This document shows, piece by piece, positions 1,445-57,888 of a stretch of 64,000 nt of DNA (its first letter is position 1; each line of letters begins with the position of its first letter). The position numbers and the translations under genes are program-made. The notes under the pieces are model-generated. The model did no database searches. It was not told the DNA's origin and was given only the letters and a program-made list of their open reading frames with translations. Origin of the DNA: a virus; the IMG/VR virus record IMGVR_UViG_3300023491_000002; one strand, 5' to 3'.

Positions 1445-4400
1445 ATGAATGGTAAATATGAGTTTTCACAAGATGCTATTGATAACTTTATGTTTATTCA
1501 TGCTTATTGGAAAAATAGTTGTGATGGCATCAATGCTGCTCCTGAGAATAAGTGGGGCTATAAACGTGGAGATATTCCTTTTATAGATTATCTCTGTGAA
1601 GATAAAAGTAAATATCCGAAAGCATCCGAGGGTATTAGTTATATTACTAATAAGCCTTTATATGATCCGGATAATGATTTTCTTATTGGTAACTCTGGTG
1701 GTATTCTTATGAATATTGATTTTATTGTTATTAATATAGAAAGACTTTCTAAAGCTGCTGATACTTTTGATGAATATGGTACGTATTGTGATTATGACCC
1801 TAGTACTCCGGCTTATGAATCATTTTGGCAAAGAGAAACATCTCGTCGTAAGAAAGGTGTTTTTATTAAAGCTAAACTTTATTATAAAGATATTCCTAAG
1901 TTCTTTGATGCTAATACTACTGATGAGGAACGTGAAAGTTTACTTCAACCTTTACGTATAACCGGTGCGCATTATACTTATCTTAATTATGGTCGTATTG
2001 AACGTACACCTAATGATAAAGAACGTGCAAGACTTAAACGTGAAGGTGCTGAACACGTTGAGACTGTTATGGGTTTTCCTCGTTATTGGGATGGTGACTA
2101 TTGGAACTTCAAAATAGATGAGTTTATTGCTAATAATAAGTTTCATCTTACTAAGGCTAAAGCCCGTCGTAAAGGTTTCTCATATAAACGTGGTAGTCAA
2201 GCTGCAAATACAATTAACTTATTTCCGAATGTTACGGTAACTCTTGCTGCTGACCAATTAGCTTATCTTACAGATAAAGGTGCTACTACGTTTATGGCTA
2301 AGAAATGTCTTGACCATTTTGAGGAACATACGTTTTGGAAAAGAGGTTACATTTCAGAAGCTATTGATGATATACTGATGGGTTATCGTGTATCAACTAA
2401 AGGTCTTAAAAACTTTGGTTGGCTTTCTAATCTTTATAGTGTTGCTATTGGTAAGAATGAATCTGCTGCTGTAGGTAAGAAAGCTATTGAGATTGACTTC
2501 GAGGAAGCTGGTAAGTGCTTTGCTAAAGGTACTAGATTTGTGATGTTTGACGGTTCTATTAAGAATGTTGAAGATATTATTATTGGTGATATTCTTATGG
2601 GACCTGATAGTAAACCTAGAACAGTTCTTGCTACTAAACAAGGTAGAGATGAAATGTTTAAGATTACTCCCGGAAATGGAGAATCTCATATTGTTAATAG
2701 TAAACATCCGATTCGTACTATATATCGAAAAGCTTATGGTAATATAGTTAGAGAAGAGTTAGTTACTGCTCCTGATTATATTAAAATGATTCAAGAACAT
2801 CCTCGTTGGAGAGAATGTTATGCTCTTGAAAAGACTGGCGTTGAATTTGAGCATAAAGATGTTCTTATTGATCCTTATATATTTGGTTTATGGATTGGTG
2901 ATGGTGCTTCAGATGATTCATATATTACAAATGAAGATCCTGAAGTTATTGAAACTATTTATAAATATGCAGAAGATCATAATCTTAGAATTACTATTAA
3001 AGATAATAAAAATAGTAAAGCTAAAGATTATAGATTTACTAGACTTGAAACTGAAACTAATAATTGGTTTAGACAAGAACTTAGTCGTTTAGGTGTTCTT
3101 AATAATAAATTTATACCTAAAGATTATATTGTTACAGATAGAAAATCTCGTTTAGAATTTCTTGCTGGTATTATTGATACGGATGGTTCATTTGATTCTC
3201 GTAAAGGTAATTTTGAGATAGCTCAAAAGAATCCTTATATTACTGCTGGTATTGTTTATATAGCTCGTAGTTGTGGTTTAAAAACTACAGTTACTGAAAG
3301 AGTTATTAAAGATACTATTTATTATCGTATAATGATATTAAGTAATGCTTGGGAGATTCCTACTAAAATAACTCGTAAACAATGTAAAGAATATACAACT
3401 TTACAAAAGAATCCTCTTGAATGCAGATTTGATGTTGAATCTATCGGTGTTGATGATTATTATGGTTTTGAAGTTGATGGTGATCAGTTATGTCTTTTAG
3501 AAGATTTTACTATTGTACATAATTGTCCTAATCTCCAAAAAGCTCTTGACGTTACTTTATCTAATACAGAATCTGGTGCTATATCTGTTGGTACTATTCG
3601 TATTTATGGTACGGGTGGTACTAAAGGTGCTAACTGGGCTGCATTTAGTAAAGCCTTTTATAATCCCAAAATGAATAAGATGCTTTGCATGGAAAACGTT
3701 TGGGATATTAATAAACGTCATGAAGTATGTGGTTTCTTCTTTCCACAAGTATGGGATTGTGAACCTTATGTTGAACGTGGTAATTCAATTATATTCACTG
3801 CTTATGCTTGGGATAAACAAGATAAAGAGAATCACTTTCATAATAATGATAGTGAAACTCATATAATCTATAAAGCCCAACGTGCTAATACTCCTGCCGA
3901 AGCGTTCATTAATACAACAGAGAATATGTTCGCTTCTCCTGAACTTAATCTACACGTTTCAGATTTAATTAATGATAATGCTACTAGATTCTTTCAAGAC
4001 GGTTGGATTGTTGTTAATGATTTAGGTAATTCTAATAAAGCTGAATTTATACCAAAAGCTGAATGTATTAAACGTGATATATTTGGTAAAGGTAGATTCC
4101 ATGAGTTTGTTAATCAAGTTCCGCATGGTTCTCGTGATGATACTCATGGTTGCGTTAGAATGTATTATCGTCCGTTCTTAGTAAATGGTGAAGTGCCTAA
4201 AGATTTATATTTTGTTAGTGTGGATGCGTATAAGGTAGATAAGGCTCAAAAAGACGTAACAGATAAACATTCTCTTTATTCTGCACAAGTATGGATGCGT
4301 AGTAATACTATTACTCCATATCCAAATCAAAAACTGCTTGTATGCGAATATATAGGGCGTTTGGACACAATGGAGCAAAATGATATAGTCACTATGGGTA

Positions 4401-4855
4401 TGTGTCTTATGTATAATGCTGAATGTTGTCCGGAAGCTGGTACTGGTGAGACTGTTTCTAACTTTATTAAATATAAACTTAGACGTTACTTAATGCTTGA
4501 CCCAACCAATGCCAATACTCGTAAATTGACTAATCCTAACAATAATGATTATGGTATTGTAATTGGTGATGGTGATAAGAAATATAATGGTCTTCGTATG
4601 CTAAAGGAGTTTATTTATGAACCTCTTTCATATACTGCTGATGGTAAACCTATTCGTAGACTTAAGTCTATTAGTAGTGTTCGATTGCTTCTAGAGTGTC
4701 AGAGATTTACTGCTGAGGGTAACTTCGACCATATTAGTGCTGCTATTGTTGCTATGTATGTCTTTCTTGCAGATTCTTTAAATACTAAGCGTCTTGTTGA
4801 AGGTAATACAGAGAATAATGACAGACGTATTGCAAATCGTTTAAATCGTCGTTAA
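1445..4855 (+). CDS. Intein-containing large protein, probably the large terminase subunit (TerL). It is about 800 aa after splicing.
   Basis: It lies directly upstream of the portal-like and capsid-like genes. The C-extein has RNase-H-like nuclease-type motifs: FVSVDAYK (Asp motif I-like) and a C-terminal FDHISAAIVAMY (motif III-like). Inteins are typical of phage TerL. I could not pick out a Walker A motif by eye. Confidence 0.5.
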   Translation: MNGKYEFSQDAIDNFMFIHAYWKNSCDGINAAPENKWGYKRGDIPFIDYLCEDKSKYPKASEGISYITNKPLYDPDNDFLIGNSGGILMNIDFIVINIERLSKAADTFDEYGTYCDYDPSTPAYESFWQRETSRRKKGVFIKAKLYYKDIPKFFDANTTDEERESLLQPLRITGAHYTYLNYGRIERTPNDKERARLKREGAEHVETVMGFPRYWDGDYWNFKIDEFIANNKFHLTKAKARRKGFSYKRGSQAANTINLFPNVTVTLAADQLAYLTDKGATTFMAKKCLDHFEEHTFWKRGYISEAIDDILMGYRVSTKGLKNFGWLSNLYSVAIGKNESAAVGKKAIEIDFEEAGKCFAKGTRFVMFDGSIKNVEDIIIGDILMGPDSKPRTVLATKQGRDEMFKITPGNGESHIVNSKHPIRTIYRKAYGNIVREELVTAPDYIKMIQEHPRWRECYALEKTGVEFEHKDVLIDPYIFGLWIGDGASDDSYITNEDPEVIETIYKYAEDHNLRITIKDNKNSKAKDYRFTRLETETNNWFRQELSRLGVLNNKFIPKDYIVTDRKSRLEFLAGIIDTDGSFDSRKGNFEIAQKNPYITAGIVYIARSCGLKTTVTERVIKDTIYYRIMILSNAWEIPTKITRKQCKEYTTLQKNPLECRFDVESIGVDDYYGFEVDGDQLCLLEDFTIVHNCPNLQKALDVTLSNTESGAISVGTIRIYGTGGTKGANWAAFSKAFYNPKMNKMLCMENVWDINKRHEVCGFFFPQVWDCEPYVERGNSIIFTAYAWDKQDKENHFHNNDSETHIIYKAQRANTPAEAFINTTENMFASPELNLHVSDLINDNATRFFQDGWIVVNDLGNSNKAEFIPKAECIKRDIFGKGRFHEFVNQVPHGSRDDTHGCVRMYYRPFLVNGEVPKDLYFVSVDAYKVDKAQKDVTDKHSLYSAQVWMRSNTITPYPNQKLLVCEYIGRLDTMEQNDIVTMGMCLMYNAECCPEAGTGETVSNFIKYKLRRYLMLDPTNANTRKLTNPNNNDYGIVIGDGDKKYNGLRMLKEFIYEPLSYTADGKPIRRLKSISSVRLLLECQRFTAEGNFDHISAAIVAMYVFLADSLNTKRLVEGNTENNDRRIANRLNRR
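2516..3523 (+). mobile_element. Intein of 336 aa with an embedded LAGLIDADG homing endonuclease.
   Basis: It starts with Cys1 (CFAKGTRFVMFDG, block A). LAGLIDADG motif 1 is LWIGDGASDDSY (about nt 2884-2910). Motif 2 is FLAGIIDTDGSF (about nt 3158-3193). It ends ...FTIVHN followed by the +1 Cys (CPNLQ), which is the canonical HN/C splice junction. The length is a multiple of 3 inside the host ORF. Confidence 0.85.
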
Positions 4856-7243
4856 ATGGATGCTTCTAAGATTCCTAATTCTTTAGAAAAGCCTGATGTC
4901 TTTGCTTCGGAAGCTACTAAGCGTGGAGCTGTTTGGACTAAGGCTATGTGTGATTGGGTTATTGCTACTGCTCATTCTAATAATGATAAAGCAGATATTA
5001 AAGCCTTTCTTGACGCTGCAAATGGAATTGTAGATGAATCTACTTACAAGTATGTAATGGCGACCTACAACTCCGTTAATGGTAGAAAAGAAGATTTGCC
5101 TGGTAAGATTAGAGATGTTGATTTTATTACTCCTATTAAAGAGAAATATATAGGAGAGTTCATTAACACCTATAATAACTACCAAGTTTATAATGCTGAT
5201 ATTGATGTTGTCACTAGACGTAACGCTGATCTTCGTGTTGCTCTTGATGGTCTTCTTCGTCAGCAATTTATAAACATCATGAATGCTAACGGTGTTCAAA
5301 CCGGTGAGCCTTCTAAAGATCTTCCATCTGCTGAAGACTTTATGAAACAAGCCGCTAAGGATTGGATTGATGAAGAAGCTGATCGTGGTCAGAAAACTCT
5401 TAATCTTCTTAATTCCCTTATTAAAGCTAATGAGAAATATATTCAAGCTTTCTATTATTGGTTCTGTACTGAAAGCGTTTATTCTTATCGTGATGTAAGA
5501 TACAATGATGTTATTTTTGAAATTATTTCTCCTCTTGAGTATTATCGAATTGATAGTGGTAATCTTTTTGTTGAAGATGATGATTATGGGATGCGAGAGT
5601 TTGATATTAACATCAATGATATAATTGGTGAATATCAAGAAGTTCTTTCTAAAAGAGATATCGCTTATATCAAAGATATAATTCATAATCATGAAAGTAC
5701 GGGTGAATATACAGTTACTCCTGTTATGCTTCGTTCTCGTGAGATTGCTTTTAATCCTACGATTGATACGCAGAATGCTGCTCCGTACCACTCCTTGCCC
5801 TCTACCGGGGTCCTCAAAGCTCGTCATTGTGTTTTTAAGGTTCCTATGAAGCGTGGTGTTCTTACTTACACTAATGCTTATGGTGAGATTGAGCAAAAGA
5901 TTGTTGATGAAGATTATGTCTTAGATACTACTCTTGGTGATATTGATATTGAATATACTTGGGTTCTTCAATGTTGGGAAGCTTATCGTTTTGGTGATAA
6001 AGATTGGGGTGTATATACTAAATCTCAACCTATCATTGTTCAACGTGAAGAAGTGAATAATCTTAATCATTGTAAATTACCTTATAATGGTTTAAGTCGT
6101 TTAATGCTTTTTAATAATCCTAAACCTATTCCTTATCGCTTATTACCTTATCTTGCTCTTTATCGTCTTTATACTTTAGTTGAGGAACGCACTATTAGTA
6201 AATTCCGATCATGGCTATTGATACCTGAAAGTTTCTTAGCTGATACTAAAGATATGACTATGGAAGAGCGTCTTGATGCAGCTAATCGAGATGGTACTCT
6301 TGTATTTGATGATAGTGAAATAGCTAAGCAACAAGCATCACTTCAAGCTATTAAAGAGATTGCTAATACTACAATGATTAATTATCTTACGACTATTAAT
6401 CAAATTAAGCAGTCTATTAAGCAAGAAGCATATGAACTTGCTAATATGAACGATCAGCGTGCAGGAGATATTCAAGCTCGTGCCGGTAAAGCTGTTACTG
6501 AGATGGGACTTAATCAGGCTCTAATGGGATCTGTGTGGTCACTTAAAATCTTTGATTGCTTCCGCTCTCGTGATATGATGGCTAATCTTGATGCTGCTAA
6601 AATTGCTTGGATTGATGGCTATGAAGGTTCTTATGTAGATCCTAATACCAATGAGATTGTTCAAGTTCGTGTAGATGGTACTGACTTTGTTAATTCTAAT
6701 TTAGGTATCTTTGTTGGTAACTCTGCTGAACTTAATGAACAAGTACGTAAGCTTGAGGAAATTGCTTTTGGTGCTGCTCAAAATGGAAATTACGATGTAG
6801 CTGCTGAGGCTGTTTGTAATCATAACATTGCTTCTTTACGCAAATATATTAAAGAAGCTGCCGAAGCTCAACGTCAATTTGAACTTCAAAAAGAAGAGAT
6901 TCAAAAGAAGTGGGATGCTGAGATTGAACAAACTCGTGCTGCTAATGCGGAAGCTCAACGTAAATTTGAAGCTGAACAAGCTCAACTTGATCGCGATTCT
7001 AAGGAAGCTATTGCTGCTGATACTAATCTTACTAATATTATTATTACTGATGCTAAGCTTCAAGTAGATAAGAATGGTAATGATTATATTAGTGAAGATG
7101 AATCTAATAGTGGTACTCTTGATGATTATCTTAAAATGACTAAGTTAAACTTAGATATTGATAGAGTTAATCTGGAACGTGCCAAGTTTGAGGAACAAAA
7201 GCGCATGAATCGTATTAACGCCAATAAGCCACGGAAGTCTTAA
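4856..7243 (+). CDS. Putative portal protein, 795 aa.
   Basis: Its size, its place between the TerL-like and scaffold/MCP-like genes, and an acidic/basic coiled-coil C-terminus (QRQFELQKEEIQKKWDAEIEQ...). One copy of the GC-rich repeat (element E) is embedded at 5777-5822. Confidence 0.45.
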   Translation: MDASKIPNSLEKPDVFASEATKRGAVWTKAMCDWVIATAHSNNDKADIKAFLDAANGIVDESTYKYVMATYNSVNGRKEDLPGKIRDVDFITPIKEKYIGEFINTYNNYQVYNADIDVVTRRNADLRVALDGLLRQQFINIMNANGVQTGEPSKDLPSAEDFMKQAAKDWIDEEADRGQKTLNLLNSLIKANEKYIQAFYYWFCTESVYSYRDVRYNDVIFEIISPLEYYRIDSGNLFVEDDDYGMREFDININDIIGEYQEVLSKRDIAYIKDIIHNHESTGEYTVTPVMLRSREIAFNPTIDTQNAAPYHSLPSTGVLKARHCVFKVPMKRGVLTYTNAYGEIEQKIVDEDYVLDTTLGDIDIEYTWVLQCWEAYRFGDKDWGVYTKSQPIIVQREEVNNLNHCKLPYNGLSRLMLFNNPKPIPYRLLPYLALYRLYTLVEERTISKFRSWLLIPESFLADTKDMTMEERLDAANRDGTLVFDDSEIAKQQASLQAIKEIANTTMINYLTTINQIKQSIKQEAYELANMNDQRAGDIQARAGKAVTEMGLNQALMGSVWSLKIFDCFRSRDMMANLDAAKIAWIDGYEGSYVDPNTNEIVQVRVDGTDFVNSNLGIFVGNSAELNEQVRKLEEIAFGAAQNGNYDVAAEAVCNHNIASLRKYIKEAAEAQRQFELQKEEIQKKWDAEIEQTRAANAEAQRKFEAEQAQLDRDSKEAIAADTNLTNIIITDAKLQVDKNGNDYISEDESNSGTLDDYLKMTKLNLDIDRVNLERAKFEEQKRMNRINANKPRKS
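5777..5822 (-). repeat. GC-rich conserved element, copy E. It is in reverse orientation, embedded in-frame in the portal-like gene.
   Basis: Its reverse complement GAGCTTTGAGGACCCCGGTAGAGGGCAAGGAGTGGTACGGAGCAGC aligns with copies A-D and F. It is a local GC island in AT-rich coding DNA and translates as AAPYHSLPSTGVLKA. Confidence 0.55.
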
Positions 7244-13485: not shown

Positions 13486-16257
13486 GAATGTAATATTAAA
13501 ATTGTCAAGTTAAAACAAGTTCTTCCTCTTGGTACATTTCCTAAGCGTGAGCATAACGTTCGATTCTTCTATCATCGTACTGATGGTTGTTACTATATGT
13601 ATGATGAAAAAGGTTGCGAAATTAATCTAACTACTGATGGTAATATTATTGCTATTGATAGAGAGTTGATTGTTGGTAGTGAGTCTTTGACTGATGACGC
13701 TCTTGTTTGCATTGGTCTTAAAGCTAATTATGTGCATCCTAGTCGTGGTATTAGAAATAATACTTGTGGTTGTCAAGATACATATATTCGTGCTTGGACT
13801 TACATCAAAGATCTTCAAGATTTTATGCAGTCTGGTCATATCGAACGTGATTACTATAGAGTTACTTTAGTTCCTTCTCCTGAAGAGGGTGGTATTGTTG
13901 GATGTAGTGGTTCTGCTATTGTTCCTGATGAAAACTCAGATGGCTTCCGTTTCCAATTTGAAGCTGGTAGTCGTGTTGAACTTTATGCTAAACCTGTTCA
14001 AGGTTATCACTTTAAAGGTTGGAAAGAGTTCCATACTAATGAGATTATGTCTATTAGTCCTAATTGGTCTTTTACTATTAAGAAAGATATGGATTTGATA
14101 GGCGTATTTGAAAAGGATGAAGCTCCTATTGAACAATTCTATATTAATGTCAATGCTGATCCGGCTAATGCAGGATATGTAGTTGGTGCCGGAACATTCC
14201 CAAAAGGTACAAGGCATTCTATAACAGCTGCGGCAATTCAAGGGTATCATTTTACTCATTGGACTGATAGTTTAAATCGTATTGTTTCTACTAATCTTCA
14301 ATATGATCTTGTTGTTGAGAAAGATGAAACTTATACTGCACACTTCGAGCTTGATGCTCCTGTTATTGAGGAGTACAATGTAACTATTATAACTAATCCT
14401 GCTGATAAAGGTTCAGTTAGCGGTGGCGGTACTTATAAGTCCGGTCAAACTGCAATAATTGTTCCTAGTCCAGTTGAGGGTTGGGCTGTTGATACAGTTA
14501 CTGCTTCTGGTGGTAATCTTGTAGATAATGGTAATGGTACATATAGCATCGTTGTTACACGAGATCTTACGATTACGGTAAACTTTAAAGAAGCTATTCG
14601 TTATTTCACGTTTAGTATCGTGGCAGATGCGAATGGTTTAGTTCGATATAAAGATATTAATGATGCTTGGTCTCAATGGGCAGAAAGACACGAAGTCACT
14701 GCTCCGGAAAAGACTATTGTCACTATCGCTGGTAAAGCTAACGGCAGTTATGAATTTGAAAAGTGGGTAACGCCTACTGGTGCTAATCTTCCTAATAATG
14801 AAAACAATATCATTGTTGAAGAAGGTCTGCATCGCAAAGTTTATACTGCCTATTTCAAGGAAACTTACATTCCACCTGAAACTCATATTGTTAATATCAC
14901 TGCTGGTTCTAATGGTAAATGCAAATATAAGATTGGCTCTGGTGAATATTCAGAAGCTGCATCTTTGTATTCTAACATTAGTATTACTGACGGTGAGACA
15001 ATTGAAGTATTAGGTGTTCCCGATAGCGGTTATTCTTTTGAACAATGGAATATTGGTGGAACTACTTCTAACTCTAATCCTTATTCAAAGGTTATTACTG
15101 AAAATGTAGATTTCTCTTGTACGTTCGTAGAGATTCCACCGGAAGAAGTTACTATTACGGTAGGTTCTGATGGAACTAATGAAACTCGTTATCGTATAGG
15201 TGATGGTTCTTGGTCTAATTGGTCTACTTCCGAACATACGTTTAAAACTGCTGTAGGTTCGATTTATTTAGTTGAAGCTCGTGCGGTTGGTAACTACAAA
15301 TTTAGAGAGTGGAATACAAGCGGTGCAAAGGTTTCAGATAATCCTGCAACATTCACTGCTAAAACCGGAACAAATGCAACGCATATTGCTACGTTTGATC
15401 AAGTAATCATGCGAACGCTAACTCTTACTGCTGGAACGGGTGGTAAATGTCGTGCAAAGATCAATGGAAGTTGGAGCGACTATTATAGTGGCACAAAGAC
15501 TTACTCTGATATTGTTGACGGAACTACCGTTTCTGTAGAAGCATTAGCAGATAGCGGCTATCATTTTAAGGAATGGACTGATTCGGGTGCTCCCTCGATT
15601 ACTTCGCGTGATATTGTCATGAATGACTCTAAATCTATTGAAGCTCGTTTTGAGGTTGATGCTTCTGATAAATTCCAAGTCACCTATGAAGCTATTCCTA
15701 ACGGAAGTGCTACAATGGAAGGTGCTGGTACTTATGATGATGGTGATACTTGTACGATTAAAGTTAATGTAAGTCCGGGTTATACTTTGAATAAAGTGCT
15801 TGTTGATGGTGTTAAAATCACTCTTAACAGTAATAATCAGTATAGCTTTGTGGTTGAGAAAAACATTAAGGTTACTATTGAATGCGATCTTATTCCTGAA
15901 CCCACACATTATACACTTACAGTTAAAACTGAAGATGAAGGTGTAGTTCAAGGTGGTGTTGGTATCAATAAAGAATCTAATTTAGGAGTTGAAACTGCTG
16001 AATTTGAGGATGGTACTGTTGCTACTATTCATGCTACAGCTGCTGAAGGTTATAGCTTTGGTGGTTGGTGGAAAGATGGAGTTAAGGTTTCTGATGATGT
16101 AACTCTAAGTGTTACTGTTGATGCTAATAAGACTTATATTGCTAAGTTTACTCAAGATCCATATCTCGAATTAGATAAGACTTCTCTTATTTTCGAGGCT
16201 GCTGGTGGAACTCAAACTGTTAATGTTACTTCTAACGTCGAATGGACGGTTTCATAA
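13486..16257 (+). CDS. Fibre or receptor-binding-type protein. It has about 5 tandem Ig-like repeats with a G-Y-(H/S)-F-x-x-W signature, and ends with the N-terminal half of a BACON domain.
   Basis: Repeats GYHFKGW, GYHFTHW, GYSFEQW, GYHFKEW and GYSFGGW. The C-terminus is QDPYLELDKTSLIFEAAGGTQTVNVTSNVEWTVS. The ORF-track start at 13465 is a TTG, so ATG 13486 is preferred. Confidence 0.7.
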   Translation, partial: ECNIKIVKLKQVLPLGTFPKREHNVRFFYHRTDGCYYMYDEKGCEINLTTDGNIIAIDRELIVGSESLTDDALVCIGLKANYVHPSRGIRNNTCGCQDTYIRAWTYIKDLQDFMQSGHIERDYYRVTLVPSPEEGGIVGCSGSAIVPDENSDGFRFQFEAGSRVELYAKPVQGYHFKGWKEFHTNEIMSISPNWSFTIKKDMDLIGVFEKDEAPIEQFYINVNADPANAGYVVGAGTFPKGTRHSITAAAIQGYHFTHWTDSLNRIVSTNLQYDLVVEKDETYTAHFELDAPVIEEYNVTIITNPADKGSVSGGGTYKSGQTAIIVPSPVEGWAVDTVTASGGNLVDNGNGTYSIVVTRDLTITVNFKEAIRYFTFSIVADANGLVRYKDINDAWSQWAERHEVTAPEKTIVTIAGKANGSYEFEKWVTPTGANLPNNENNIIVEEGLHRKVYTAYFKETYIPPETHIVNITAGSNGKCKYKIGSGEYSEAASLYSNISITDGETIEVLGVPDSGYSFEQWNIGGTTSNSNPYSKVITENVDFSCTFVEIPPEEVTITVGSDGTNETRYRIGDGSWSNWSTSEHTFKTAVGSIYLVEARAVGNYKFREWNTSGAKVSDNPATFTAKTGTNATHIATFDQVIMRTLTLTAGTGGKCRAKINGSWSDYYSGTKTYSDIVDGTTVSVEALADSGYHFKEWTDSGAPSITSRDIVMNDSKSIEARFEVDASDKFQVTYEAIPNGSATMEGAGTYDDGDTCTIKVNVSPGYTLNKVLVDGVKITLNSNNQYSFVVEKNIKVTIECDLIPEPTHYTLTVKTEDEGVVQGGVGINKESNLGVETAEFEDGTVATIHATAAEGYSFGGWWKDGVKVSDDVTLSVTVDANKTYIAKFTQDPYLELDKTSLIFEAAGGTQTVNVTSNVEWTVS

Positions 16258-16276
16258 TTAGGGAGGGGGTACTAAG

Positions 16277-18625
16277 ATGGCTATTGCTTCTTGGCTTACC
16301 CCTGCCGCTAAGAGTGGTACGGGTAATAAAACGGTTGGTTTAACTGCAAGTAAGAATACCGGTGCAAGCAGAACAACTATTGTTACTGTTTCAGTCAGCG
16401 GTATTACGAAAACTATTAATTGTACTCAAACGGAAGCTGATAAGTTTACTATTAAGATTTCAGCTTTAACTACTAATAGTTCAGGAACTACTATTACAAA
16501 TGTTGGCGATTGTTCTATTGGTTCATCTGCTACAGGTGGAGTTAAAGAAGGAACTTATTATCGTGATACTAGTGTCACATTAACTGCTAAAGCTGCTCCA
16601 ACTGGGTATGATTTTGTTGGTTGGTATGAAGGTTCTAATCTTGTTTCTACAAGTCTTTCTTTTGCTGTTACTTTAACGGCTAATAGAACTCTTGTTGCTA
16701 AATATAAGATTAAGAGCTACACTGTTAATGCAACTTCTGAGGATACAAACAAAGGTACTGTAAGTCCTGCAGGTCAAACTGTAGAACACGGTGCTAATGC
16801 TACTGTAGTTGCAACTCCTAAGGCTGCTTATAATTTTGCTGGTTGGTACAATGGAACAACTAAAGTATCTAGCAATGCTTCATATACATTTGCTGTTACT
16901 GCCAATATCAGCTTAACTGCTAAGTTTACAATTAAGACTTTCACAACTACTACTGCTAATTCAACTGGTGGTACAGCGAGCGTTAATAAGTCTAGTGTAG
17001 AATACGGTGGTTCTGCTATTTGGACGGCTACTCCGAGTACTGGCTATAACTTTAGTAAGTGGTCTAATGGTTCTACAACTAATCCTCTGACAGTTTCTAA
17101 CATTACTGCCAATACTCATATTACTCCGGTATTTGTTCTCAAGTCATATACTGTAACTTGGAATCCTAATGGTGGTACTGTAGATCCTACGTCAACTACT
17201 AAGACTCATGGTTCTACTTTAGGCCCATTGCCTACTCCGACAAGAGCTGCTGATACCCAATACACTTATACATTTAAGGGTTGGTTTACAGCTGCAACAG
17301 GTGGTACTCAAGTATCTGCATCTACTATTGTAACAGGAAACGTTACTTATTATGTTCAGTGGACTGCTACTCCTAGAAGTTACACTGCAACATTCAATGG
17401 TAACGGTGGTGGTACTCCTAGCCCATCAACTATTACTAAAACGTATGGTTCAGAATTAGGTACTCTTCCGACTTGTTCTAGGACAGGTTATACATTCCTC
17501 GGTTGGTACACAGCGTCTAGTGGCGGTACGAAAATTTCATCTGCTACTAAGATAACTGGTACTGTTACCTATTATGCTCAATGGTCTATTAATAGTTATA
17601 CTTTAACCTATAATGTTAATGGTGGTAATGCAGTAAGTCCTGCTTCTAAGAAGGTTCAATATGGAAGTGCTTATGGTACTTTGCCGACGCCTACGAAGTC
17701 TTCTAATGCTGAATACACCTATGTATTCGCAGGTTGGTACACTGCTGCTAGTGGTGGAACGCAAGTTACTGCTAATACGACAATGGGGGCAAGTAATACT
17801 ACAATATATGCACATTGGACTGCAACTAGACGGAGTTATACAATAGGTTATCAAACAACATACGGGTCTTTGAATAGGGCTAGTCAATCTGTTGCTTATG
17901 GGTCGAAAGGCTCTTGTACGTTGACTATGCCTTCAAACGATGCTCAGTACACTTATACTTTCCAAGGTTGGTATACTGCTGCCAACGGTGGTGGAACTAA
18001 GGTTGGTTCTTCATTAACTTTAGAAACACCGAGTGTAACAGGTGCTGCTACTTATTATGCTTATGTGACCAGAGCTGTTAATAGGTACACCTTTACATTT
18101 AACGCTAATGGTGGTAGTACTCCTTCTTCTTCATCTATAACTAAAGATTATAATGAAGCTATTGGAACGTTACCTACTTGTTCAAGAGCTGCGGATAATA
18201 CTTATACGTATGCATTCGCAGGTTGGTTCGATACTGCTGCCGCTACTGGTGGTACTCAATTAACTACGACAACTAAGGTTACTTCTAATAAGACTTGGTA
18301 CGCTAGATGGACTATATCTACTAGACAGTATAAATTGACAGTTACTGCTGGTACAGGAGGTACAGTTAGTGGTGGAGGTACTTATAATTACAATGCGTCA
18401 GTTACACTAAAAGCTACAGCTAATTCTGGTTATCACTTTGTTAAATGGAGTGATGGTAATACAAATGCTACAAGGACAGTCACTGTAACTAAAGATGCTA
18501 CTTATACCGCTACATTTGAACAAGATCCTTATTTGAATCTTGATAAAACTAGTCTAACGTTTGAAGCTGCTGGTGGTACACAAACTATCAAAGTAACTTC
18601 TAATGTTAATTGGACTGTTTCTTAA
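16277..18625 (+). CDS. Fibre protein with Listeria-Bacteroides (Flg_new-type) repeats. The N-terminus is the C-terminal half of a BACON domain and the C-terminus is the N-terminal half of a BACON domain.
   Basis: The N-terminus is MAIASWLTPAAKSGTGNKTV...NTGASRTTIVTVSVSG...CTQ. There are about 7 repeats of ...T(Y/F)xF(K/A)GW(Y/F)TAAxGGTQV, for example YTYTFKGWFTAATGGTQV, GYTFLGWYTASSGGTKI and YTYVFAGWYTAASGGTQV. The C-terminus QDPYLNLDKTSLTFEAAGGTQTIKVTSNVNWTVS is nearly identical at the protein level, but not the DNA level, to the C-terminus of the preceding gene. Confidence 0.75.
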   Translation: MAIASWLTPAAKSGTGNKTVGLTASKNTGASRTTIVTVSVSGITKTINCTQTEADKFTIKISALTTNSSGTTITNVGDCSIGSSATGGVKEGTYYRDTSVTLTAKAAPTGYDFVGWYEGSNLVSTSLSFAVTLTANRTLVAKYKIKSYTVNATSEDTNKGTVSPAGQTVEHGANATVVATPKAAYNFAGWYNGTTKVSSNASYTFAVTANISLTAKFTIKTFTTTTANSTGGTASVNKSSVEYGGSAIWTATPSTGYNFSKWSNGSTTNPLTVSNITANTHITPVFVLKSYTVTWNPNGGTVDPTSTTKTHGSTLGPLPTPTRAADTQYTYTFKGWFTAATGGTQVSASTIVTGNVTYYVQWTATPRSYTATFNGNGGGTPSPSTITKTYGSELGTLPTCSRTGYTFLGWYTASSGGTKISSATKITGTVTYYAQWSINSYTLTYNVNGGNAVSPASKKVQYGSAYGTLPTPTKSSNAEYTYVFAGWYTAASGGTQVTANTTMGASNTTIYAHWTATRRSYTIGYQTTYGSLNRASQSVAYGSKGSCTLTMPSNDAQYTYTFQGWYTAANGGGTKVGSSLTLETPSVTGAATYYAYVTRAVNRYTFTFNANGGSTPSSSSITKDYNEAIGTLPTCSRAADNTYTYAFAGWFDTAAATGGTQLTTTTKVTSNKTWYARWTISTRQYKLTVTAGTGGTVSGGGTYNYNASVTLKATANSGYHFVKWSDGNTNATRTVTVTKDATYTATFEQDPYLNLDKTSLTFEAAGGTQTIKVTSNVNWTVS

Positions 18626-18635
18626 ACTTTTAAAT

Positions 18636-18703
18636 GTTCCGCTACGCTTTGCAGACCCCAGTAGGGGAATAGCTTGTGGGGCGTGCGGAACTTCAAACTT
18701 TTT
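18636..18703 (+). terminator. GC-rich conserved element, copy A, in forward orientation. It is enclosed by the inverted repeat GTTCCGCTACGC...GCGTGCGGAAC and followed by CTTTTTT, so it behaves like a terminator for the 782-aa gene.
   Basis: The core GCAGACCCCAGTAGGGGAATAGCTTGTGGGGCGTGCGGAAC lies at 18651-18691, with a T-run at 18698-18703, 11 nt after the stop at 18625. Confidence 0.55.
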
Positions 18704-18728
18704 TACGAATAATTAAATTATTACTGTT

Positions 18729-22797: not shown

Positions 22798-23538
22798 ATG
22801 GCAACACTTAATCAATTAGGAAGTAAGATTTCTAATATATTAGGTAAGCCCGGTGATCATAGCATTCAAGAGAGAGCTAAAGATGCTTGTAAGGCACTCT
22901 TTGCTACTTTTATTCGTCAGAGTATTGAGCGCAATGGTGTAGATGAGGTGCTTAAAGTTAGCTTTAATGTTCCTCTTATCTGCGTTCCGCTTACCGATAT
23001 AGAAAACACATATGCGGGAATTGGTGCTAAAGATATGGTTCTTACTACTGAGCATCGAGTTCCTACACCTTTACGTATGCCTAATGATGCACCTTTTCTT
23101 CATGTTTATACTCAACATGATGATGGGAGTCTTATTACATATAAGTACGCTAATAATAGCGTAGTTCCGCTCCTTACCACAGTCTATTCCCCTACTGGGG
23201 TTTGGGGAGTGTATCAAATCGTTAATGGTAAACTTAAAATTATTATCAAAAATACTCTCAAAAACTTTGAGATTGATGCTAAAAATTATAAGTTTGTAAC
23301 AATCGTGTATGTAGCTGAAAATCCTGCTGAGGTTATCACTATGTATATGGAAGATGATGGCCAAGATATTGAACTTCCGCTTCCTGCTGATATGATAGAA
23401 CGTATAACTTATGAGGTTCTTAGAACTGAATTTGGTATTAAGCCTACAGAACACGAAGTTAAGATTATTAGTGATGCAACTTATGCTCCTAATGATCCTA
23501 ATGGTACTCAACGTTTAATCCATAATAAAGTAGAATAA
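22798..23538 (+). CDS. Hypothetical structural protein.
   Basis: ORF of 246 aa. Confidence 0.6.
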   Translation: MATLNQLGSKISNILGKPGDHSIQERAKDACKALFATFIRQSIERNGVDEVLKVSFNVPLICVPLTDIENTYAGIGAKDMVLTTEHRVPTPLRMPNDAPFLHVYTQHDDGSLITYKYANNSVVPLLTTVYSPTGVWGVYQIVNGKLKIIIKNTLKNFEIDAKNYKFVTIVYVAENPAEVITMYMEDDGQDIELPLPADMIERITYEVLRTEFGIKPTEHEVKIISDATYAPNDPNGTQRLIHNKVE

Positions 23539-29191: not shown

Positions 29192-29196
29192 TTAGT

Positions 29197-29254
29197 GTTG
29201 CTCTTTAACGATCTCCAGACCCCGGTAGGGAAAGAGCTTGTGGTAAGGAGCAAC
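29197..29254 (+). repeat. GC-rich conserved element, copy B, in forward orientation. It is enclosed by the inverted repeat GTTGCTC...GAGCAAC.
   Basis: The core CCAGACCCCGGTAGGGAAAGAGCTTGTGGTAAGGAGCAAC lies at 29216-29254. It is 6 nt after the stop at 29191 and 20 nt before the ATG at 29275. There is no T-run. Confidence 0.55.
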
Positions 29255-29274
29255 ACTCTGCAAATACTATTAGT

Positions 29275-32190
29275 ATGCCAAATAAATATAAACGTACTAA
29301 GGTCGCTGATGATGCTCAAGCTAGACGTCTTCTTATTGATATTTTTACTAAGTATCATCAAAGTAAAGATATTAATAATAGATCTCTAGGTTTAGCTATT
29401 CAAGCTCTTGATAAAGAGAGTAATACTAAAGGTCTTATAGGTCGTCCTGAGATTCATAAGATTGATTCTCTTTATCAAGTCGGTGCACCTGCTCGTGAAA
29501 TTGTTAAGTATATAGCAGAGACTGGTGTTGGTACTAAAGGTTACAATACTAAAGTCTTTACACCTCAACAACTAGCTGATGATGGTGTTATTAAACGTAT
29601 GCGTGATTTTTACAATTATGCTAAGAAGCGTGGTCTTAATCATGCAGCCGCTACTGGTTTAATGTCTATGGTTTATGGTGAGACGTTAAATGATTCGATT
29701 GATGATCTATTTTCATTTAATAAAACTCAAAGAGCTACTGCTAAAGGTGATAATAGAATTGTTAATCATGGTTTATTTAGTTTTGAGAATCTACGTAAAT
29801 GGGATGATAAGAAAGATAAAGGTAAACCTAAAACTAATTGGGTTGAAGATCCTAATTATACTTATGGTAGTTATCAATCTTATCTTAAAGCTAATAAACG
29901 TAAAGATAGTTTAGAATCTCAATTTGATTATTATCTTGATACTTATTTACCTTCTAAAGATAGTAAATTTAGTACAGATAAAGTCAATGCTATGTCGGCT
30001 GAAGATGCTTCTGTTTACTTTATGAAGAATCAAAAACCGGATTTTACTGTTGATTATTCTACAACTAAAACGCTTAGAAGTCGTGCTAACTTCTTATTTA
30101 AATCTGAATTTAATAATGGTGGTATGATTAAAAACATTTCAACTCTTAAAGCTTACCCTCGTCGACGTAAATACGCTGGTGGAGGTGAAGTTGCATTTAA
30201 AGATAGATTCGGGGATGTTCAAGGTCATAGTTATGGAGTCGAGAAAGGTATTCAAGGAGCTTCTACAATGTCTGGTTTAAGTACCGGTGCTACTATTGGC
30301 GGGGGACTTGGGGCTGGAGTTACTGCTGCGGCTGCCGCTGGATCTTCTGCTTTAGCCGGTACAACTCTTGGAGCTTGGGCAGGTCCTATTGGTATGGCAG
30401 CAGGTGCTATTATTGGTGGTATTGTTGGACTGTTTGGAGGTCGTCGTAAGAAACGTAAGGCTAAAAAAGCTGCTGAAGAAGCTGATAGGCAACGTCAGAT
30501 TGTTGCAGGCAATGAACGTATTCTTCAAGATGAACTTAAATTATCCAACACTGCTCAACAAGAAGGTGCTCTTGATATATATGGTGACTCTAATATTACA
30601 GGTGTTACTGGTTATCAAGATGATGCTAGCTTCAATAGTGACTTAGTTCAACCTACTGTTCAAGGTACTCCATTTGGTGATGTTGATCCTAGTTCTGCTT
30701 TTGGTAGAATTGCCGCTCGTTGTGGTGGAAGACTTAAACGTAAACGTTGTGGTGGCAAAGCTAAACGTTATGCTGATGGTGGTATGATTAAAGAAACATC
30801 TTCTAATACCGCAGAAGTTAATGGTCCTTCTCATGAACAAGGTGGTGTTTCTTATGGACCTAATGCAGAAGTAGAAGGTGGTGAAGCTCTTATGACTGAC
30901 GCAGATAATGCTTATGTATTCTCTGATACTTTAAAGTATAATGGAACTACATTTGCTGATCTTGCTAAGCCTCTTATGAAACATAAAGGTTATCTTGAAA
31001 GTTCTCTTCCGGTCAAATCTATGATGCTTGGTAGAATGCTTTCTCTAACTGACCGTAGTACTTATGCAATTGATCGTAATACTAATGGACGTAACGCTGA
31101 GAAAGCTAATGCTGATCTTCAAAGAACTAATGCACAAATTGCTGCAATTCAAAATGAACTCGCACAACTCTATAATCTTCAAGAAAGTATGAAAGCTGAA
31201 TCTGGTATGGAAGCTGAACCTATTGAAGCACGTTGTGGCGGTAAAATTAGAAGATATTATGATGGTGGTCAAATTGTTGATATTCCTATTTCTACTTATG
31301 GTACTCAACGGGATAATAGCGGGAATTATGCTACGGGACAAGAAATAACTTTTACATCTAATGATAAAACTCAAATTCAAAATCCTTTAACTATTATTCA
31401 ACAAGGTTTGCGTTGTGGTGGTAGAACTCGCAAATATGCTGATGGTGGCTTTATAAGTCCGGGATTTGTTTCTGAAGTTGGTGGTAATCTTATTGGTGGT
31501 ATAAGTCAATTTATAACTAATAAAGGTTTAATTGATCGTATGGAAAGTATGCGAGTTCCTGAAATTCCTCTTATGGATCGTGTAGAACTAGAAACTGATA
31601 TAAATACTGACGCTGAAATTGGAGATATTAATAATACTGTTCGTAGTCTTGAAAAATATATTACAAGTAATAGTTCTAATTCTCAAGTTGCTCGTCAGTC
31701 TATATTGCTTGCTAGAACTCAAGGTTCTCGTATGCGTAGTAGAGTTAAACAAGATGAACATAATAAAGAAGTTGAGCTTCGTAATCGTTCTCGTATAGCT
31801 AACGCTGAAATTGCTGCTAGAAATAGTCAAATTAGAGCTGAGAATGAAGCTAATAAATTTAGTCATCAAATGGAAATTATTCAAAAAAGAAGTCAGAATA
31901 GTGCTATTTTATCTAATATGATTTCTAAAATTGGTAGTGCTATTAATTCTACTCAACAACTTAAATTTGATAAAGAAAATCTTCAAAATGAAATGCTTTC
32001 TAATGTAATTAAAGATCAAAATTCTTTATCTTTTGTTGCTCAACATTTTGATGATGAAACTCTAAAAAATTTATTAGGAAGCAATGGTCTAAAAGCTATT
32101 ATTTCTTATCGTAAAAGATTAAATACAAATACCAATCTTACAACAAAAAATAAAACATCTATTAGTAAAAATAGATATAAAGGTATTTGA
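29275..32190 (+). CDS. Virion-associated protein of 971 aa with a Gly-rich transmembrane-like segment and four basic Cys-Gly-Gly/Tyr-Ala-Asp-Gly-Gly repeats. A tape-measure, ejection or cell-wall-acting role is possible.
   Basis: GLSTGATIGGGLGAGVTAAAAAGSSALAGTTLGAWAGPIGMAAGAIIGGIVGLFGG followed by RRKKRKAKK. The repeats are PRRRKYAGGGEV, RCGGRLKRKRCGGKAKRYADGGMI, RCGGKIRRYYDGGQIV and RCGGRTRKYADGGFI. There is a weak SLT-like AATGLM segment near the N-terminus. Confidence 0.65.
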   Translation: MPNKYKRTKVADDAQARRLLIDIFTKYHQSKDINNRSLGLAIQALDKESNTKGLIGRPEIHKIDSLYQVGAPAREIVKYIAETGVGTKGYNTKVFTPQQLADDGVIKRMRDFYNYAKKRGLNHAAATGLMSMVYGETLNDSIDDLFSFNKTQRATAKGDNRIVNHGLFSFENLRKWDDKKDKGKPKTNWVEDPNYTYGSYQSYLKANKRKDSLESQFDYYLDTYLPSKDSKFSTDKVNAMSAEDASVYFMKNQKPDFTVDYSTTKTLRSRANFLFKSEFNNGGMIKNISTLKAYPRRRKYAGGGEVAFKDRFGDVQGHSYGVEKGIQGASTMSGLSTGATIGGGLGAGVTAAAAAGSSALAGTTLGAWAGPIGMAAGAIIGGIVGLFGGRRKKRKAKKAAEEADRQRQIVAGNERILQDELKLSNTAQQEGALDIYGDSNITGVTGYQDDASFNSDLVQPTVQGTPFGDVDPSSAFGRIAARCGGRLKRKRCGGKAKRYADGGMIKETSSNTAEVNGPSHEQGGVSYGPNAEVEGGEALMTDADNAYVFSDTLKYNGTTFADLAKPLMKHKGYLESSLPVKSMMLGRMLSLTDRSTYAIDRNTNGRNAEKANADLQRTNAQIAAIQNELAQLYNLQESMKAESGMEAEPIEARCGGKIRRYYDGGQIVDIPISTYGTQRDNSGNYATGQEITFTSNDKTQIQNPLTIIQQGLRCGGRTRKYADGGFISPGFVSEVGGNLIGGISQFITNKGLIDRMESMRVPEIPLMDRVELETDINTDAEIGDINNTVRSLEKYITSNSSNSQVARQSILLARTQGSRMRSRVKQDEHNKEVELRNRSRIANAEIAARNSQIRAENEANKFSHQMEIIQKRSQNSAILSNMISKIGSAINSTQQLKFDKENLQNEMLSNVIKDQNSLSFVAQHFDDETLKNLLGSNGLKAIISYRKRLNTNTNLTTKNKTSISKNRYKGI

Positions 32191-57112: not shown

Positions 57113-57137
57113 GGACTTCTGTTGGACTTAAAAAAAT

Positions 57138-57175
57138 GAGAGAGGGCTTTCAGATAATACTGTCAGTCCTCTCTC
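57138..57175. terminator. Hairpin GAGAGAGG-N22-CCTCTCTC, 26 nt after the stop of the 4416-aa gene. It is preceded by an A-run and followed by TTCTTG, so it could work as a bidirectional terminator.
   Basis: Seen in the sequence. On the - strand the hairpin is followed by TTTTTTT. Confidence 0.45.
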
Positions 57176-57220
57176 TTCTTGTATCTATACTACTCATACT
57201 CCTGCTCGTGTCATTGCAAA

Positions 57221-57269
57221 CGCTCCGCCCCGTTCCACATCTATCCCTCTACCGGGGTCTGCAATGCTC
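57221..57269 (-). repeat. GC-rich conserved element, copy D, in reverse orientation, in the convergent intergenic region.
   Basis: Its reverse complement GAGCATTGCAGACCCCGGTAGAGGGATAGATGTGGAACGGGGCGGAGCG aligns with the other copies. Confidence 0.55.
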
Positions 57270-57458
57270 CACAATGCCATTTTTGCCACCTGCGGGCTTC
57301 ATATATTGATTATCTATTGGCAGACGATAACTAGTTCATATTATAAAAGAAAGTGTCTCTATGAGGCTCTATTGAAGTTATCATTATCAAACATTTGCAT
57401 TATTATCACGGCTTATGATAACGATGCAATTTAATTATAATCATAGTAGCATTAGTAA

Positions 57459-57505
57459 CACTTTCCAGACCCCAGTAGGGAACATGGTGTGGTCAGGAGC
57501 GGAAC
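57459..57505 (+). repeat. GC-rich conserved element, copy C, in forward orientation, in the convergent intergenic region.
   Basis: ACACTTTCCAGACCCCAGTAGGGAACATGGTGTGGTCAGGAGCGGAAC. Confidence 0.55.
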
Positions 57506-57538
57506 TAAGCATAGCACTTGTAACAGCACTATGCTTAG
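57506..57538. terminator. Perfect 10-bp hairpin CTAAGCATAG-N13-CTATGCTTAG, immediately 3' of the - strand gene that ends at 57544.
   Basis: Seen in the sequence and directly abutting copy C. Confidence 0.5.
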
Positions 57539-57543
57539 AAGTA

Positions 57544-57888
57544 TTAATAGTATCCCTCACTTTCACCACATTCACTCAGTCCACCAAAGCTAACTTTATT
57601 CACATTAACAATGAAAGGTAGAATCTTCTTAATTTGAGTAGAAGTAACAACAAAACTATTGTTAGTACCCGGATGCCTCATAACATACTTAATACTACCA
57701 ATATAAAGATTAGGAGATAGACGCTTATGCTTTTGCTTTTCAGCAGCGGTCATAGTAGCGAATCTATACACTTTATGCAAAACAGACCAATTACCAGTAA
57801 ATTCTTGAATAAGAGTTCCATTTGCATCACGAGTAATCACATTCCCATCAACTTCAATATAACACGTATGTGTTTTAGTTTCTTCCAT
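57544..57888 (-). CDS. Hypothetical protein, 114 aa.
   Basis: ORF; its start overlaps the upstream gene's stop by 1 nt (57888). Confidence 0.55.
   Translation of the reverse strand: MEETKTHTCYIEVDGNVITRDANGTLIQEFTGNWSVLHKVYRFATMTAAEKQKHKRLSPNLYIGSIKYVMRHPGTNNSFVVTSTQIKKILPFIVNVNKVSFGGLSECGESEGYY

Follow-up and report, generated by a model that had tools for sequence, protein, structure and literature searches.

What a short GC-rich segment is doing inside the portal gene of an AT-rich phage is the question raised by positions 5777-5822 of IMG/VR virus record IMGVR_UViG_3300023491_000002, of which a stretch of 64,000 nucleotides (the window) was analysed. The segment recurs elsewhere in the window, and it is translated within an open reading frame (ORF) of 795 amino acids (aa). 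An earlier note, made from the sequence alone, had explained it as the in-frame insertion of a mobile element resembling a miniature transposable element with inverted repeats (MITE) or a mini-intein, or alternatively as a nucleic-acid signal whose encoded peptide is constrained. The window takes in the structural half of a divergent crAss-like phage and a portion of its replication block; the nearest named relative of the phage is cr127_1 (Kahucivirus, Crevaviridae; MT774393.1; portal identity 40%). We consider it fairly likely that the portal segment belongs to an ancient family of dispersed GC-rich hairpins that occupy fixed positions in Crassvirales, most likely as a cis-acting nucleic-acid signal.

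Copies of the repeat and their reading frames

A profile built from the repeat copies and run over the 64-kb window recovered exactly eight copies, four per strand (E = 7e-14 to 4e-11). The core CTACYGGGG has seven exact occurrences in the window against 0.1 expected, and the 38-nt core of the portal copy had no chance match in shuffles. The repeat copy described in the earlier note is real, but the conserved block spans about 52 nt rather than 46, and the consensus of this lineage is GCAnAGTTCCGCTCCnnACCACnCCTnnTYCCCTACYGGGGTCTGCAAAGC. The portal gene and the eight copies in the window are as follows.

4856-7243, plus strand: portal gene, 795 aa; the variable loop that immediately precedes the nearly invariant His324 holds a repeat copy.
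5770-5824 (core 5777-5822), plus strand: profile match in the portal gene, with the pyrimidine-rich 'R' strand as the sense strand; it reads QNAAPYHSLPSTGVLKAR and contains the hairpin CCTC-TACC-GGGG at 5798-5809.
18636-18704 (profile match 18642-18695), minus strand: intergenic copy, between a stop at 18625 and a start at 18729.
23159-23214, plus strand: copy in the CrAss_Ring_2 gene 22798-23538, R-sense and in the codon phase of the portal copy; it reads VPLLTTVYSPTGVWG.
29195-29261 (profile match 29207-29261), minus strand: intergenic copy, between a stop at 29191 and a start at 29275.
38732-38785, plus strand: copy 'F' of the earlier note, R-sense, within the 2877-aa gp45-like virion protein, in a linker of low complexity; it reads QSSAPDQSLPPTGGYKAQ.
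42764-42818, minus strand: copy in the opposite (F-sense) orientation, situated 340 aa before the C-terminus encoded by the 2877-aa gene; it reads TNSLTPDREGAVEGSGTSA.
57218-57270, plus strand: left member of an inverted pair, located where the structural (plus) and replication (minus) gene blocks converge.
57456-57510, minus strand: right member of the inverted pair, separated from the left by an AT-rich spacer of about 185 nt (57271-57455).

Four of these copies are intergenic (18642, 29207 and the pair 57218/57456) and four lie inside ORFs (portal, 22798-23538 and two in the 2877-aa gene). Sequence beyond the window was taken from a near-identical contig, and in the roughly 80 kb of genome mapped in this way (84.7-kb contig) 12 copies are known, the eight in the window and four more. 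The additional copies sit in the minus-strand replication block, where three are intergenic, all in sense orientation and 16-38 nt upstream of start codons, and one is inside the gene of a family-4 uracil-DNA glycosylase (UDG). Genome-wide, five of the 12 copies are intragenic, namely the four ORF copies of the window and the one in the UDG, and all five are open. The copies are GC-rich within an AT-rich genome (27-40% GC in the window), they form inverted doublets at 57218/57456 and at about 74.4/74.8 kb, and across relatives 18 distinct repeat sites were found.

In the portal gene, nucleotides 5777-5821 (GCT GCT CCG TAC CAC TCC TTG CCC TCT ACC GGG GTC CTC AAA GCT) encode AAPYHSLPSTGVLKA, residues 308-322, and both the coordinates and the in-frame translation previously given for this copy were right. 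The second embedded copy that had been reported, at 38732-38785 in the 2877-aa gene, does agree with the portal copy in orientation and codon phase and is translated as SSAPDQSLPPTGGYKA; a third copy in that phase (ORF 22798-23538) and the oppositely oriented copy at 42764-42818 had been overlooked. The description of the embedded copies as antisense or reversed holds only relative to two intergenic copies taken as reference. All three coding copies in R orientation within the window (portal, ring protein 2 and 38732) are in the phase xCT ACY GGG and give (S/P)(S/P)TG. The R orientation is open in all three frames and the F orientation in one, which is the frame used by the 42764-42818 copy. 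Where copies are coding, they fall in variable loops or linkers and are read in a stop-free frame, and the frame common to the two copies first described is simply the preferred, loop-friendly sense frame.

Origin of the portal copy

In a graded series of 25 portal homologues, all portals of at least 74% identity carry AP.H(S/T)(L/I)(P/S)(S/P)TG(V/I).KA.H. The element DNA was detected at the same portal site in three lineages of 74-78% portal identity (L211-L213; E = 4e-11 to 1e-14), and the copy is conserved in the 91% sister clade. At this site the 68% outgroup (L214) and most other portals have an unrelated segment about 13 residues longer, two portals (P0058 and P0059) have an unrelated segment of the same length, and cr127_1 and other crAss portals align across the segment without a gap. 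No element was found in 12.8 kb of L214. Among orthologues the segment is lineage-specific, being present at 74% identity and above and missing from the 68% outgroup and from more distant portals, and no orthologue was observed to carry the same peptide in AT-rich codons. The sharp boundary between at least 74% and 68% identity, together with the equal or longer segments of the outgroups, indicates that the portal copy was gained in the ancestor of the portals of at least 74% identity, is specific to that clade and overwrote an existing loop. It may have been copied from another copy of the repeat by short-patch recombination, with no net change in length.

The proposal of an in-frame element insertion was correct in so far as the repeat is dispersed, translated and lineage-specific, but it was not borne out by added length, target-site duplication or empty sites. 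Among related metagenomic contigs and strains, no empty site was seen in 48 portal-spanning alignments or in the 1-16 alignments available for each of the other sites (seven sites). The GCAAAGYTC that flanks the element at both ends is part of the consensus and not site-specific, and no target-site duplication was found. A MITE-like insertion is contradicted by the equal or longer outgroup segment, by the lack of a target-site duplication and by the lack of presence/absence polymorphism. The likeness to a mini-intein fails as well, since the segment is 15 aa long, without Hint motifs or nucleophilic junction residues; for contrast, the neighbouring terminase does contain a real intein with Hint and LAGLIDADG domains.

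Related repeats in other crAss-like phages

The profile search did not find the element of this lineage in cr127_1. That phage has a GC-rich repeat of its own in ten copies, approximately TTCGGAACACCTCTCGCCCTTGTGGCC (also given as approximately ACGAATTTCGGAACACCTCTCGCCCTTGTGGCCATTA), with copies inside the UDG and the giant virion gene and with three inverted pairs, and every unpaired copy points with the local genes. Five of its sites correspond to sites in the present genome.

cr127_1 repeat (MT774393.1), both orientations: positions 1769, 11364, 11912, 19699, 28698, 28879, 42040, 42240, 59333 and 82350.
Shared site 1: the same UDG loop, in a different frame.
Shared site 2: the gap directly upstream of the primase gene.
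Shared site 3: the boundary of ring protein 2 and the next gene; cr127_1 59333 lies at the end of the CrAss_Ring_2 homologue.
Shared site 4: a linker of the giant protein; the 42764 copy starts 21 aa after a shared block, and the cr127_1 repeat 20 aa after it.
Shared site 5: the inverted pair at the convergent junction (cr127_1 28698/28879).

An inverted pair is also present beside the same convergent junction in prototypical crAssphage (p-crAssphage; Carjivirus communis, BK010471.1), at 28088/28172. The genomes of p-crAssphage and cr3_1 contain 30-37 related repeats each with the core CCTCTAC(N)GGGG, which is close to CCCTCTACCGGGG of the portal copy; with at most one mismatch, CCTCTACGGGG was found in 32 copies in p-crAssphage and 30 in cr3_1, where about none are expected. 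In p-crAssphage 23 of these 32 copies are intragenic. When the proteins of p-crAssphage and cr3_1 were aligned, eight coding copies were found at the identical aligned residue and in the same orientation, in proteins that are only 24-55% identical (the virion RNA polymerase vRNAP, gp45, gp47, gp50, PolB, SNF2, gp21 and ligase), and a ninth, in gp73, is at residue 32 in both phages, outside the alignment block. Three lineages agree in how two copies are laid out in the gp45-like protein, with a sense copy in a mid-protein linker and an antisense copy near the C-terminus, 326 aa from it in p-crAssphage, 357 aa in cr3_1 and 340 aa in the window. In p-crAssphage and cr3_1 the sense copies read SSTG, LYGG or PLRG, SSTG being the commonest, and the antisense copies PVE(D/E) or PRGG. 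Common descent of these repeat families is inferred from their short shared core and their similar behaviour.

Several p-crAssphage copies have a long form (e.g. 6021, 28088, 28172, 44964, 58738, 93678 and 95864), in which the motif is followed by AGCG..GC hairpin..AGCGGGTC..CTAAT. The GC hairpin of the long form has a covarying stem and a GTA, GAA or GAAA loop, and has no Rfam match.

A pattern scan of bacterial and archaeal genomes from 185,579 species gave only chance-level matches in GC-rich taxa and one mis-binned phage contig, by which a host origin of the repeat, or mimicry of a CRISPR repeat, was rejected.

Constraint on the nucleotides

A distant syntenic relative (L120), the alignable parts of which are 63-68% identical to the window at the nucleotide level, has the two copies of the 2877-aa gene at matching sites and with matching orientations; these copies are about 80% identical to those of the window while the flanking coding sequence is unalignable. 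Among strains, the intergenic copy at 18636-18704 has an element identity of 0.99 versus 0.92 in its flanks. In the portal gene, rare codons are retained in five of five lineages while the amino acids change (GGG, 2.7% of Gly codons; TCC, 2.9% of Ser; CCC, 6.0% of Pro; ACC, 4.6% of Thr). Invariant amino acids make up 37% of the element region versus 61% of the rest of the portal, and invariant nucleotides 58% versus 57%. Orthologous copies vary at the same positions as paralogous copies, and shifts of the consensus are genome-specific and common to paralogues, as with AACCTC in all known L212 copies. Judged from these comparisons, constraint acts on the nucleotides and the peptide is a passenger, as is also indicated by the reading of the motif in five frames and by the same-residue copies in proteins of 24-55% identity. 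The alternative offered in the earlier note, a nucleic-acid signal, fits much better than insertion; the added supposition of a constrained peptide does not stand, for it is the nucleotides that are constrained while the peptide drifts.

It might be argued that the proteins themselves need a conserved peptide motif (…P-S-T-G…) and that the nucleotide likeness is a by-product, given that the three sense copies of the window give (S/P)(S/P)TG in one frame and that SSTG is so common in p-crAssphage and cr3_1. However, the same nucleotides are found between genes and, inside genes, in the opposite orientation; five reading frames are used; rare GC-rich codons are kept over preferred AT-rich synonyms; and the portal segment shows lower amino-acid conservation than the remainder of the protein. 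This explanation is already effectively refuted, and we give it next to no credence.

The main rival of a signal is a selfish mobile GC cluster, similar to a MITE, a REPIN or the GC clusters of yeast mitochondria, which would spread by copy-paste or gene conversion, be merely tolerated in loops and in gaps between genes, and owe its apparent conservation to continuing copy-to-copy conversion (molecular drive) and not to a benefit for the phage. New copies do arise, as the portal copy is clade-specific and a consensus of about 50 nt cannot evolve de novo, and GC-rich elements forming inverted doublets in an AT-rich genome are what such a cluster would look like. Exchange between copies is suggested by the sister-clade copy at the 57456 site, which has the 'flavour' of the 18642 copy of the window, and the genome-specific consensus changes common to paralogues point the same way. 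Some copies have a weak and partial terminal inverted similarity (TTTGCAGA...TCTGCAAA), but most have no such match; the ends of the 57218-57270 copy are CATTGCAAA and CATTGCAGA. Against a selfish cluster, the portal site shows neither a target-site duplication nor a gain in length, the site-spanning strain alignments contain no empty sites, and orthologous copies keep site-specific features, so that homogenisation is incomplete. No transposase, RAYT (a REP-associated transposase) or other evident mobilising gene was seen among the proteins scanned or annotated, a search that was not exhaustive since not every ORF was scanned. Furthermore, sites and orientations persist over genus- and family-level divergence, which is unexpected for parasitic repeats in a streamlined phage genome. 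We therefore regard a selfish cluster as rather unlikely.

Hairpin structure

Only a 4-bp hairpin, YCYC-TACY-GGGG, is supported in this lineage. Its 5' half varies between C and T and its 3' GGGG is invariant, so that wobble (G-U or G-T) pairing is possible on the R strand alone. Extra closing stems were found on two intergenic copies located 3' of large genes. The copy at 18636-18704 has an additional 7-bp stem (GTTCCGC 18636-18642 / GCGGAAC 18685-18691) followed by a T-run (18699-18704), and the copy at 29195-29261 has a 9-bp enclosing stem (GTGTTGCTC 29195-29203 / GAGCAACAC 29248-29256) which is compensatory relative to the 18636 copy. In cr3_1 the core forms a 7-bp C(UACG)G hairpin. The stability of UNCG tetraloops is well established.

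These structures bear on the possibility that the repeat works in RNA, as an mRNA hairpin with the role of a terminator or attenuator, of a barrier at 3' ends or in processing, or of a site where ribosomes pause at the boundaries of domains. The C(UACG)G-type tetraloop hairpin of the cr3_1 and p-crAssphage core is a stable motif typical of RNA, the variation is compatible with wobble pairing on one strand only, the extra stems in the window follow directly after stops (one of them with a T-run), and the intergenic long forms of p-crAssphage and cr3_1 have an adjacent GC hairpin with covarying stems. Each of the two convergent gene blocks ends in a sense copy, and the coding copies lie in linkers. 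Nevertheless, at least a third of the copies run antisense to the local genes, a terminator or processing site inside the portal, polymerase and ligase genes would be harmful, and the arms and loop are conserved in sequence beyond the need of a generic hairpin. The hairpin has only 4 bp in this lineage, and Rfam 15 gave no relevant match in the window at E <= 1 and none in p-crAssphage at gathering thresholds. An RNA-level role is in our opinion improbable, and a structured RNA was rejected for this lineage on account of its 4-bp hairpin without covariation.

Two further readings of the motif were dropped. The likeness to the boxA/boxB (nut-like) sites of phage Lambda (CGCTCCTTA plus hairpin) involves bases at variable positions. 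In the left arm of R copies the conserved C's recur every 5 nt (e.g. 23164-23190, GTTCC GCTCC TTACC ACACC), and the other strand reads GGNNN x4 plus GGGG; the repeat of cr127_1 showed no such periodicity. A G-quadruplex or i-motif formed from GGNNN x4 was dropped as speculative, since the cr127_1 family does not share it and it is predicted not to be stable.

A probable signal in the nucleic acid

The layout of the copies suggests that the repeat might be a site in double- or single-stranded DNA for replication, recombination or packaging, such as an origin or initiator (RepL) site, a priming site, a polar fork barrier, a packaging motif similar to an uptake sequence, or a linker for modular exchange. 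One copy is found per 2.6-7 kb, irrespective of coding status, and both orientations are used. The genome-wide order is + - + - + - + - - + - -, with eight of the 12 copies R-sense and four antisense. The eight copies of the window (5802, 18656, 23192, 29220, 38763, 42778, 57249 and 57470) alternate strictly (permutation p = 0.028); with all 12 copies the excess of alternation is weaker and not strict (p = 0.044), in p-crAssphage it has p = 0.07, and in cr127_1 it is absent. The inverted pair, which is retained in the sister clade, and the convergent junction (57112-57888) coincide with the turning point of the cumulative GC skew, and in p-crAssphage inverted pairs of long forms are located just upstream of both RepL genes (gp43 and gp88). 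Recombination linkers would have to keep their place and orientation in divergent genomes, as the copies do, and preferred frames, dialects and inverted pairs are reminiscent of DNA uptake sequences. On the other hand, orientation is not cleanly sorted by replichore, and annotation of the neighbouring proteins with PHROG and Pfam gave no candidate repeat-binding protein or transposase. Strain-level mosaic or indel breakpoints near copies were not significantly enriched (3 observed vs 1.2 expected), which led us to reject a recombination or indel hotspot, and a 787-bp indel in the 2877-aa gene lies 165 nt downstream of the 42764-42818 copy, the nearest, and not at its edge. An invertible segment between inverted copies was rejected too, as related contigs show no inverted arrangement and no antisense ORF covers the 4-kb interval in the 2877-aa gene. 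A DNA site of this kind is possible though doubtful as a separate explanation; it overlaps the signal that we favour, of which it is one possible role.

Two features adjoin the inverted pair. Strains differ by an indel of about 77 nt at 57378-57455, next to the right member, and a 114-aa minus-strand ORF (57544-57888) lies beside the pair and has no family match.

The element is ancient and dispersed, its positions are conserved, it overlaps coding sequence under constraint on its nucleotides, and its consensus differs between lineages; it is probably a DNA or RNA signal and not a decaying inserted element. The functional form would be a short hairpin into which the pyrimidine-rich strand folds, YCYC-TACY-GGGG in this lineage and the 7-bp C(UACG)G in cr3_1. 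A phage-encoded factor that co-evolves with the hairpin may recognise it, which would explain the lineage-specific 'dialects', and new copies would arise by the copying of existing ones. What the signal does is a guess, and one more apt to be wrong than right: it could be a site on transiently single-stranded DNA where phage transcription or replication loads, pauses or is punctuated. The guess draws on the precedent of phage N4 and on reports that crAss-like phages inject a virion RNA polymerase which prefers single-stranded DNA and for which no early-promoter motif is known (10.1101/2020.03.07.982082). The mixed orientations and mid-gene positions do not sit easily with a simple promoter or terminator. 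Taken to its widest scope, the proposal is of a Crassvirales 'hairpin code', in which 10-37 hairpin signals per genome, long fixed even in essential genes, are read in single-stranded form by a co-evolving phage machine, with a dialect for each lineage. The reader might be the injected virion RNA polymerase or the replication or packaging apparatus. We put this forward tentatively, aware that the balance of probability is against it.

Several results weigh against a cis-acting signal. RNAalifold in both orientations and a mutual-information scan of 34 diverse copies gave no covariation beyond the 4-bp hairpin. The synonymous-codon test on the portal copy was not significant (3/7 vs 36%, p = 0.49), and with seven usable codons it was underpowered. 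Reciprocal profile searches gave no significant link between the present family and those of p-crAssphage, cr3_1 or cr127_1. Orientation relative to transcription is mixed, with 8 sense and 4 antisense copies here and 19 and 14 in p-crAssphage, and in phi14:2 the sequences upstream of early transcripts were found to share no motif (10.1101/2020.03.07.982082). What looks like purifying selection could also result from concerted evolution of the copies by gene conversion, and the cis-acting role is a proposal drawn from sequence.

Genome context and neighbouring genes

The window encodes the portal, the major capsid protein, BACON and ring proteins, the 2877-aa gp45-like protein and a 4416-aa protein similar to virion RNA polymerase. 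The 795-aa ORF is a portal of the crAss type by its identity to the cr127_1 portal, and it also matches the structure of the crAss001 portal gp20 (7qog), in an alignment that begins at residue 334, past the repeat loop. No tRNA or tmRNA was found in a search for these genes.

The 1136-aa ORF next to the portal gene (1445-4855) encodes the terminase large subunit, in which the intein has Hom_end_hint at aa 358-411 and Hom_end/LAGLIDADG at aa 561-629. The intein is missing from the homologues of about 800 aa in L211 and L212 and present in the L213 homologue (1138 aa). Two tail-fibre-like genes of 930 and 782 aa (16100-18625) contain tandem units of about 220-235 nt (families D3, D5, D9, D11 and D12) with the peptide 'Y.F.GW(Y/F)TA..GG', and their homologues in relatives have Flg_new/Flg_new_2 and BACON matches. 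The 3' part of the 782-aa gene is 80-87% identical between strains, with 95-97% identity just downstream. In a 971-aa gene the motif ACGTTGTGGTGG..AAACGT occurs four times (30717-31449, repeat family D4), which suggests a repeated peptide module containing Cys-Gly-Gly.

The 787-bp segment of the 2877-aa gene (42982-43768) is in frame and near the C-terminus. It is present in the window and in L043, and missing from many contigs that are otherwise 95-100% identical (e.g. L110, from contig 038738). The L120/L122 sequence is a 94,331-bp contig of 29% GC (GTDB record JAAUYS010000080.1), a syntenic crAss-like phage filed under a 'Clostridia bacterium' metagenome-assembled genome, probably as a binning artefact.

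Significance and comparison with known systems

The crAss-like phages are the most abundant human gut viruses, and their gene regulation is poorly understood. The repeat is apparently an undescribed feature that spans the order Crassvirales. A literature search that included motif strings found no description of it, with papers in subscription journals outside the search and a prior description therefore possible; in a survey of crAss genomics (PMC7886860) the words repeat, GC-rich, palindrome and hairpin are absent. That copies are kept across genera at one and the same residue in polymerase, ligase, primase, portal and virion proteins points to a strong selective force on the DNA or RNA itself, and the copies provide concrete sites for experiment, some 12 of them in the present phage and at least 30 in prototypical crAssphage. 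Repeat patches violate the assumptions of codon-usage and dN/dS analyses and can be mistaken for insertions, and the dialects may serve as lineage markers in the classification of crAss-like phages.

Like the hairpin promoters of the N4 virion RNA polymerase and the promoter sets of T7-like phages, the repeat is a short conserved hairpin or consensus at syntenic positions. In those systems a phage-specific polymerase reads the consensus and co-evolves with it; for the present repeat such recognition would be a proposal. The N4-type promoter is a hairpin of 5-7 bp with a short loop that is recognised on a single-stranded template, compared with 4 bp here and 7 bp in cr3_1. N4, however, has three promoters, all upstream of early genes, whereas the repeat is mostly inside late genes, and T7 promoters are all oriented with transcription, whereas the repeat is found in both orientations and often in mid-gene.

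The REP elements (repetitive palindromes outside genes) and REPINs of bacteria, which depend on RAYT, are likewise GC-rich hairpin repeats arranged as singlets and inverted doublets, for which roles in mRNA stability, termination and DNA topology have been proposed. They are extragenic by definition, in contrast to the phage repeat, which is often intragenic and has a 4-bp hairpin in this lineage; no RAYT-like gene was noticed. The GC clusters of yeast mitochondria (including the optional 46-bp cluster in var1) are also short, GC-rich, partly palindromic and occasionally intragenic in an AT-rich genome. Conversion-like events spread these clusters, and some of them have been recruited for functions (ori/rep, RNA processing). 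The yeast clusters are highly polymorphic for presence and absence, while no such polymorphism was seen for the phage repeat, whose positions are conserved across genera. Rickettsia palindromic elements and ORF MITEs resemble it in being dispersed repeats that are translated in frame at orthologous sites in relatives. The Rickettsia elements differ in that they are 100-150 bp long, lengthen the protein and are seen as decaying; the phage repeat, of about 52 nt, gave no gain in portal length and has kept its consensus over deep divergence.

The uptake signal sequences of Haemophilus (USS) and the DNA uptake sequences of Neisseria (DUS) are, like the repeat, short over-represented motifs that occur in both orientations, in tolerant coding positions and in preferred frames, with intergenic inverted pairs (sometimes terminators in USS and DUS) and lineage dialects at orthologous positions. 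They belong to bacterial chromosomes and the competence machinery and occur about once per kb, whereas the repeat is sparser, bears a hairpin and is found in a lytic-type phage with no uptake step. By this comparison the resemblance would be one of genomic behaviour and not of membership.

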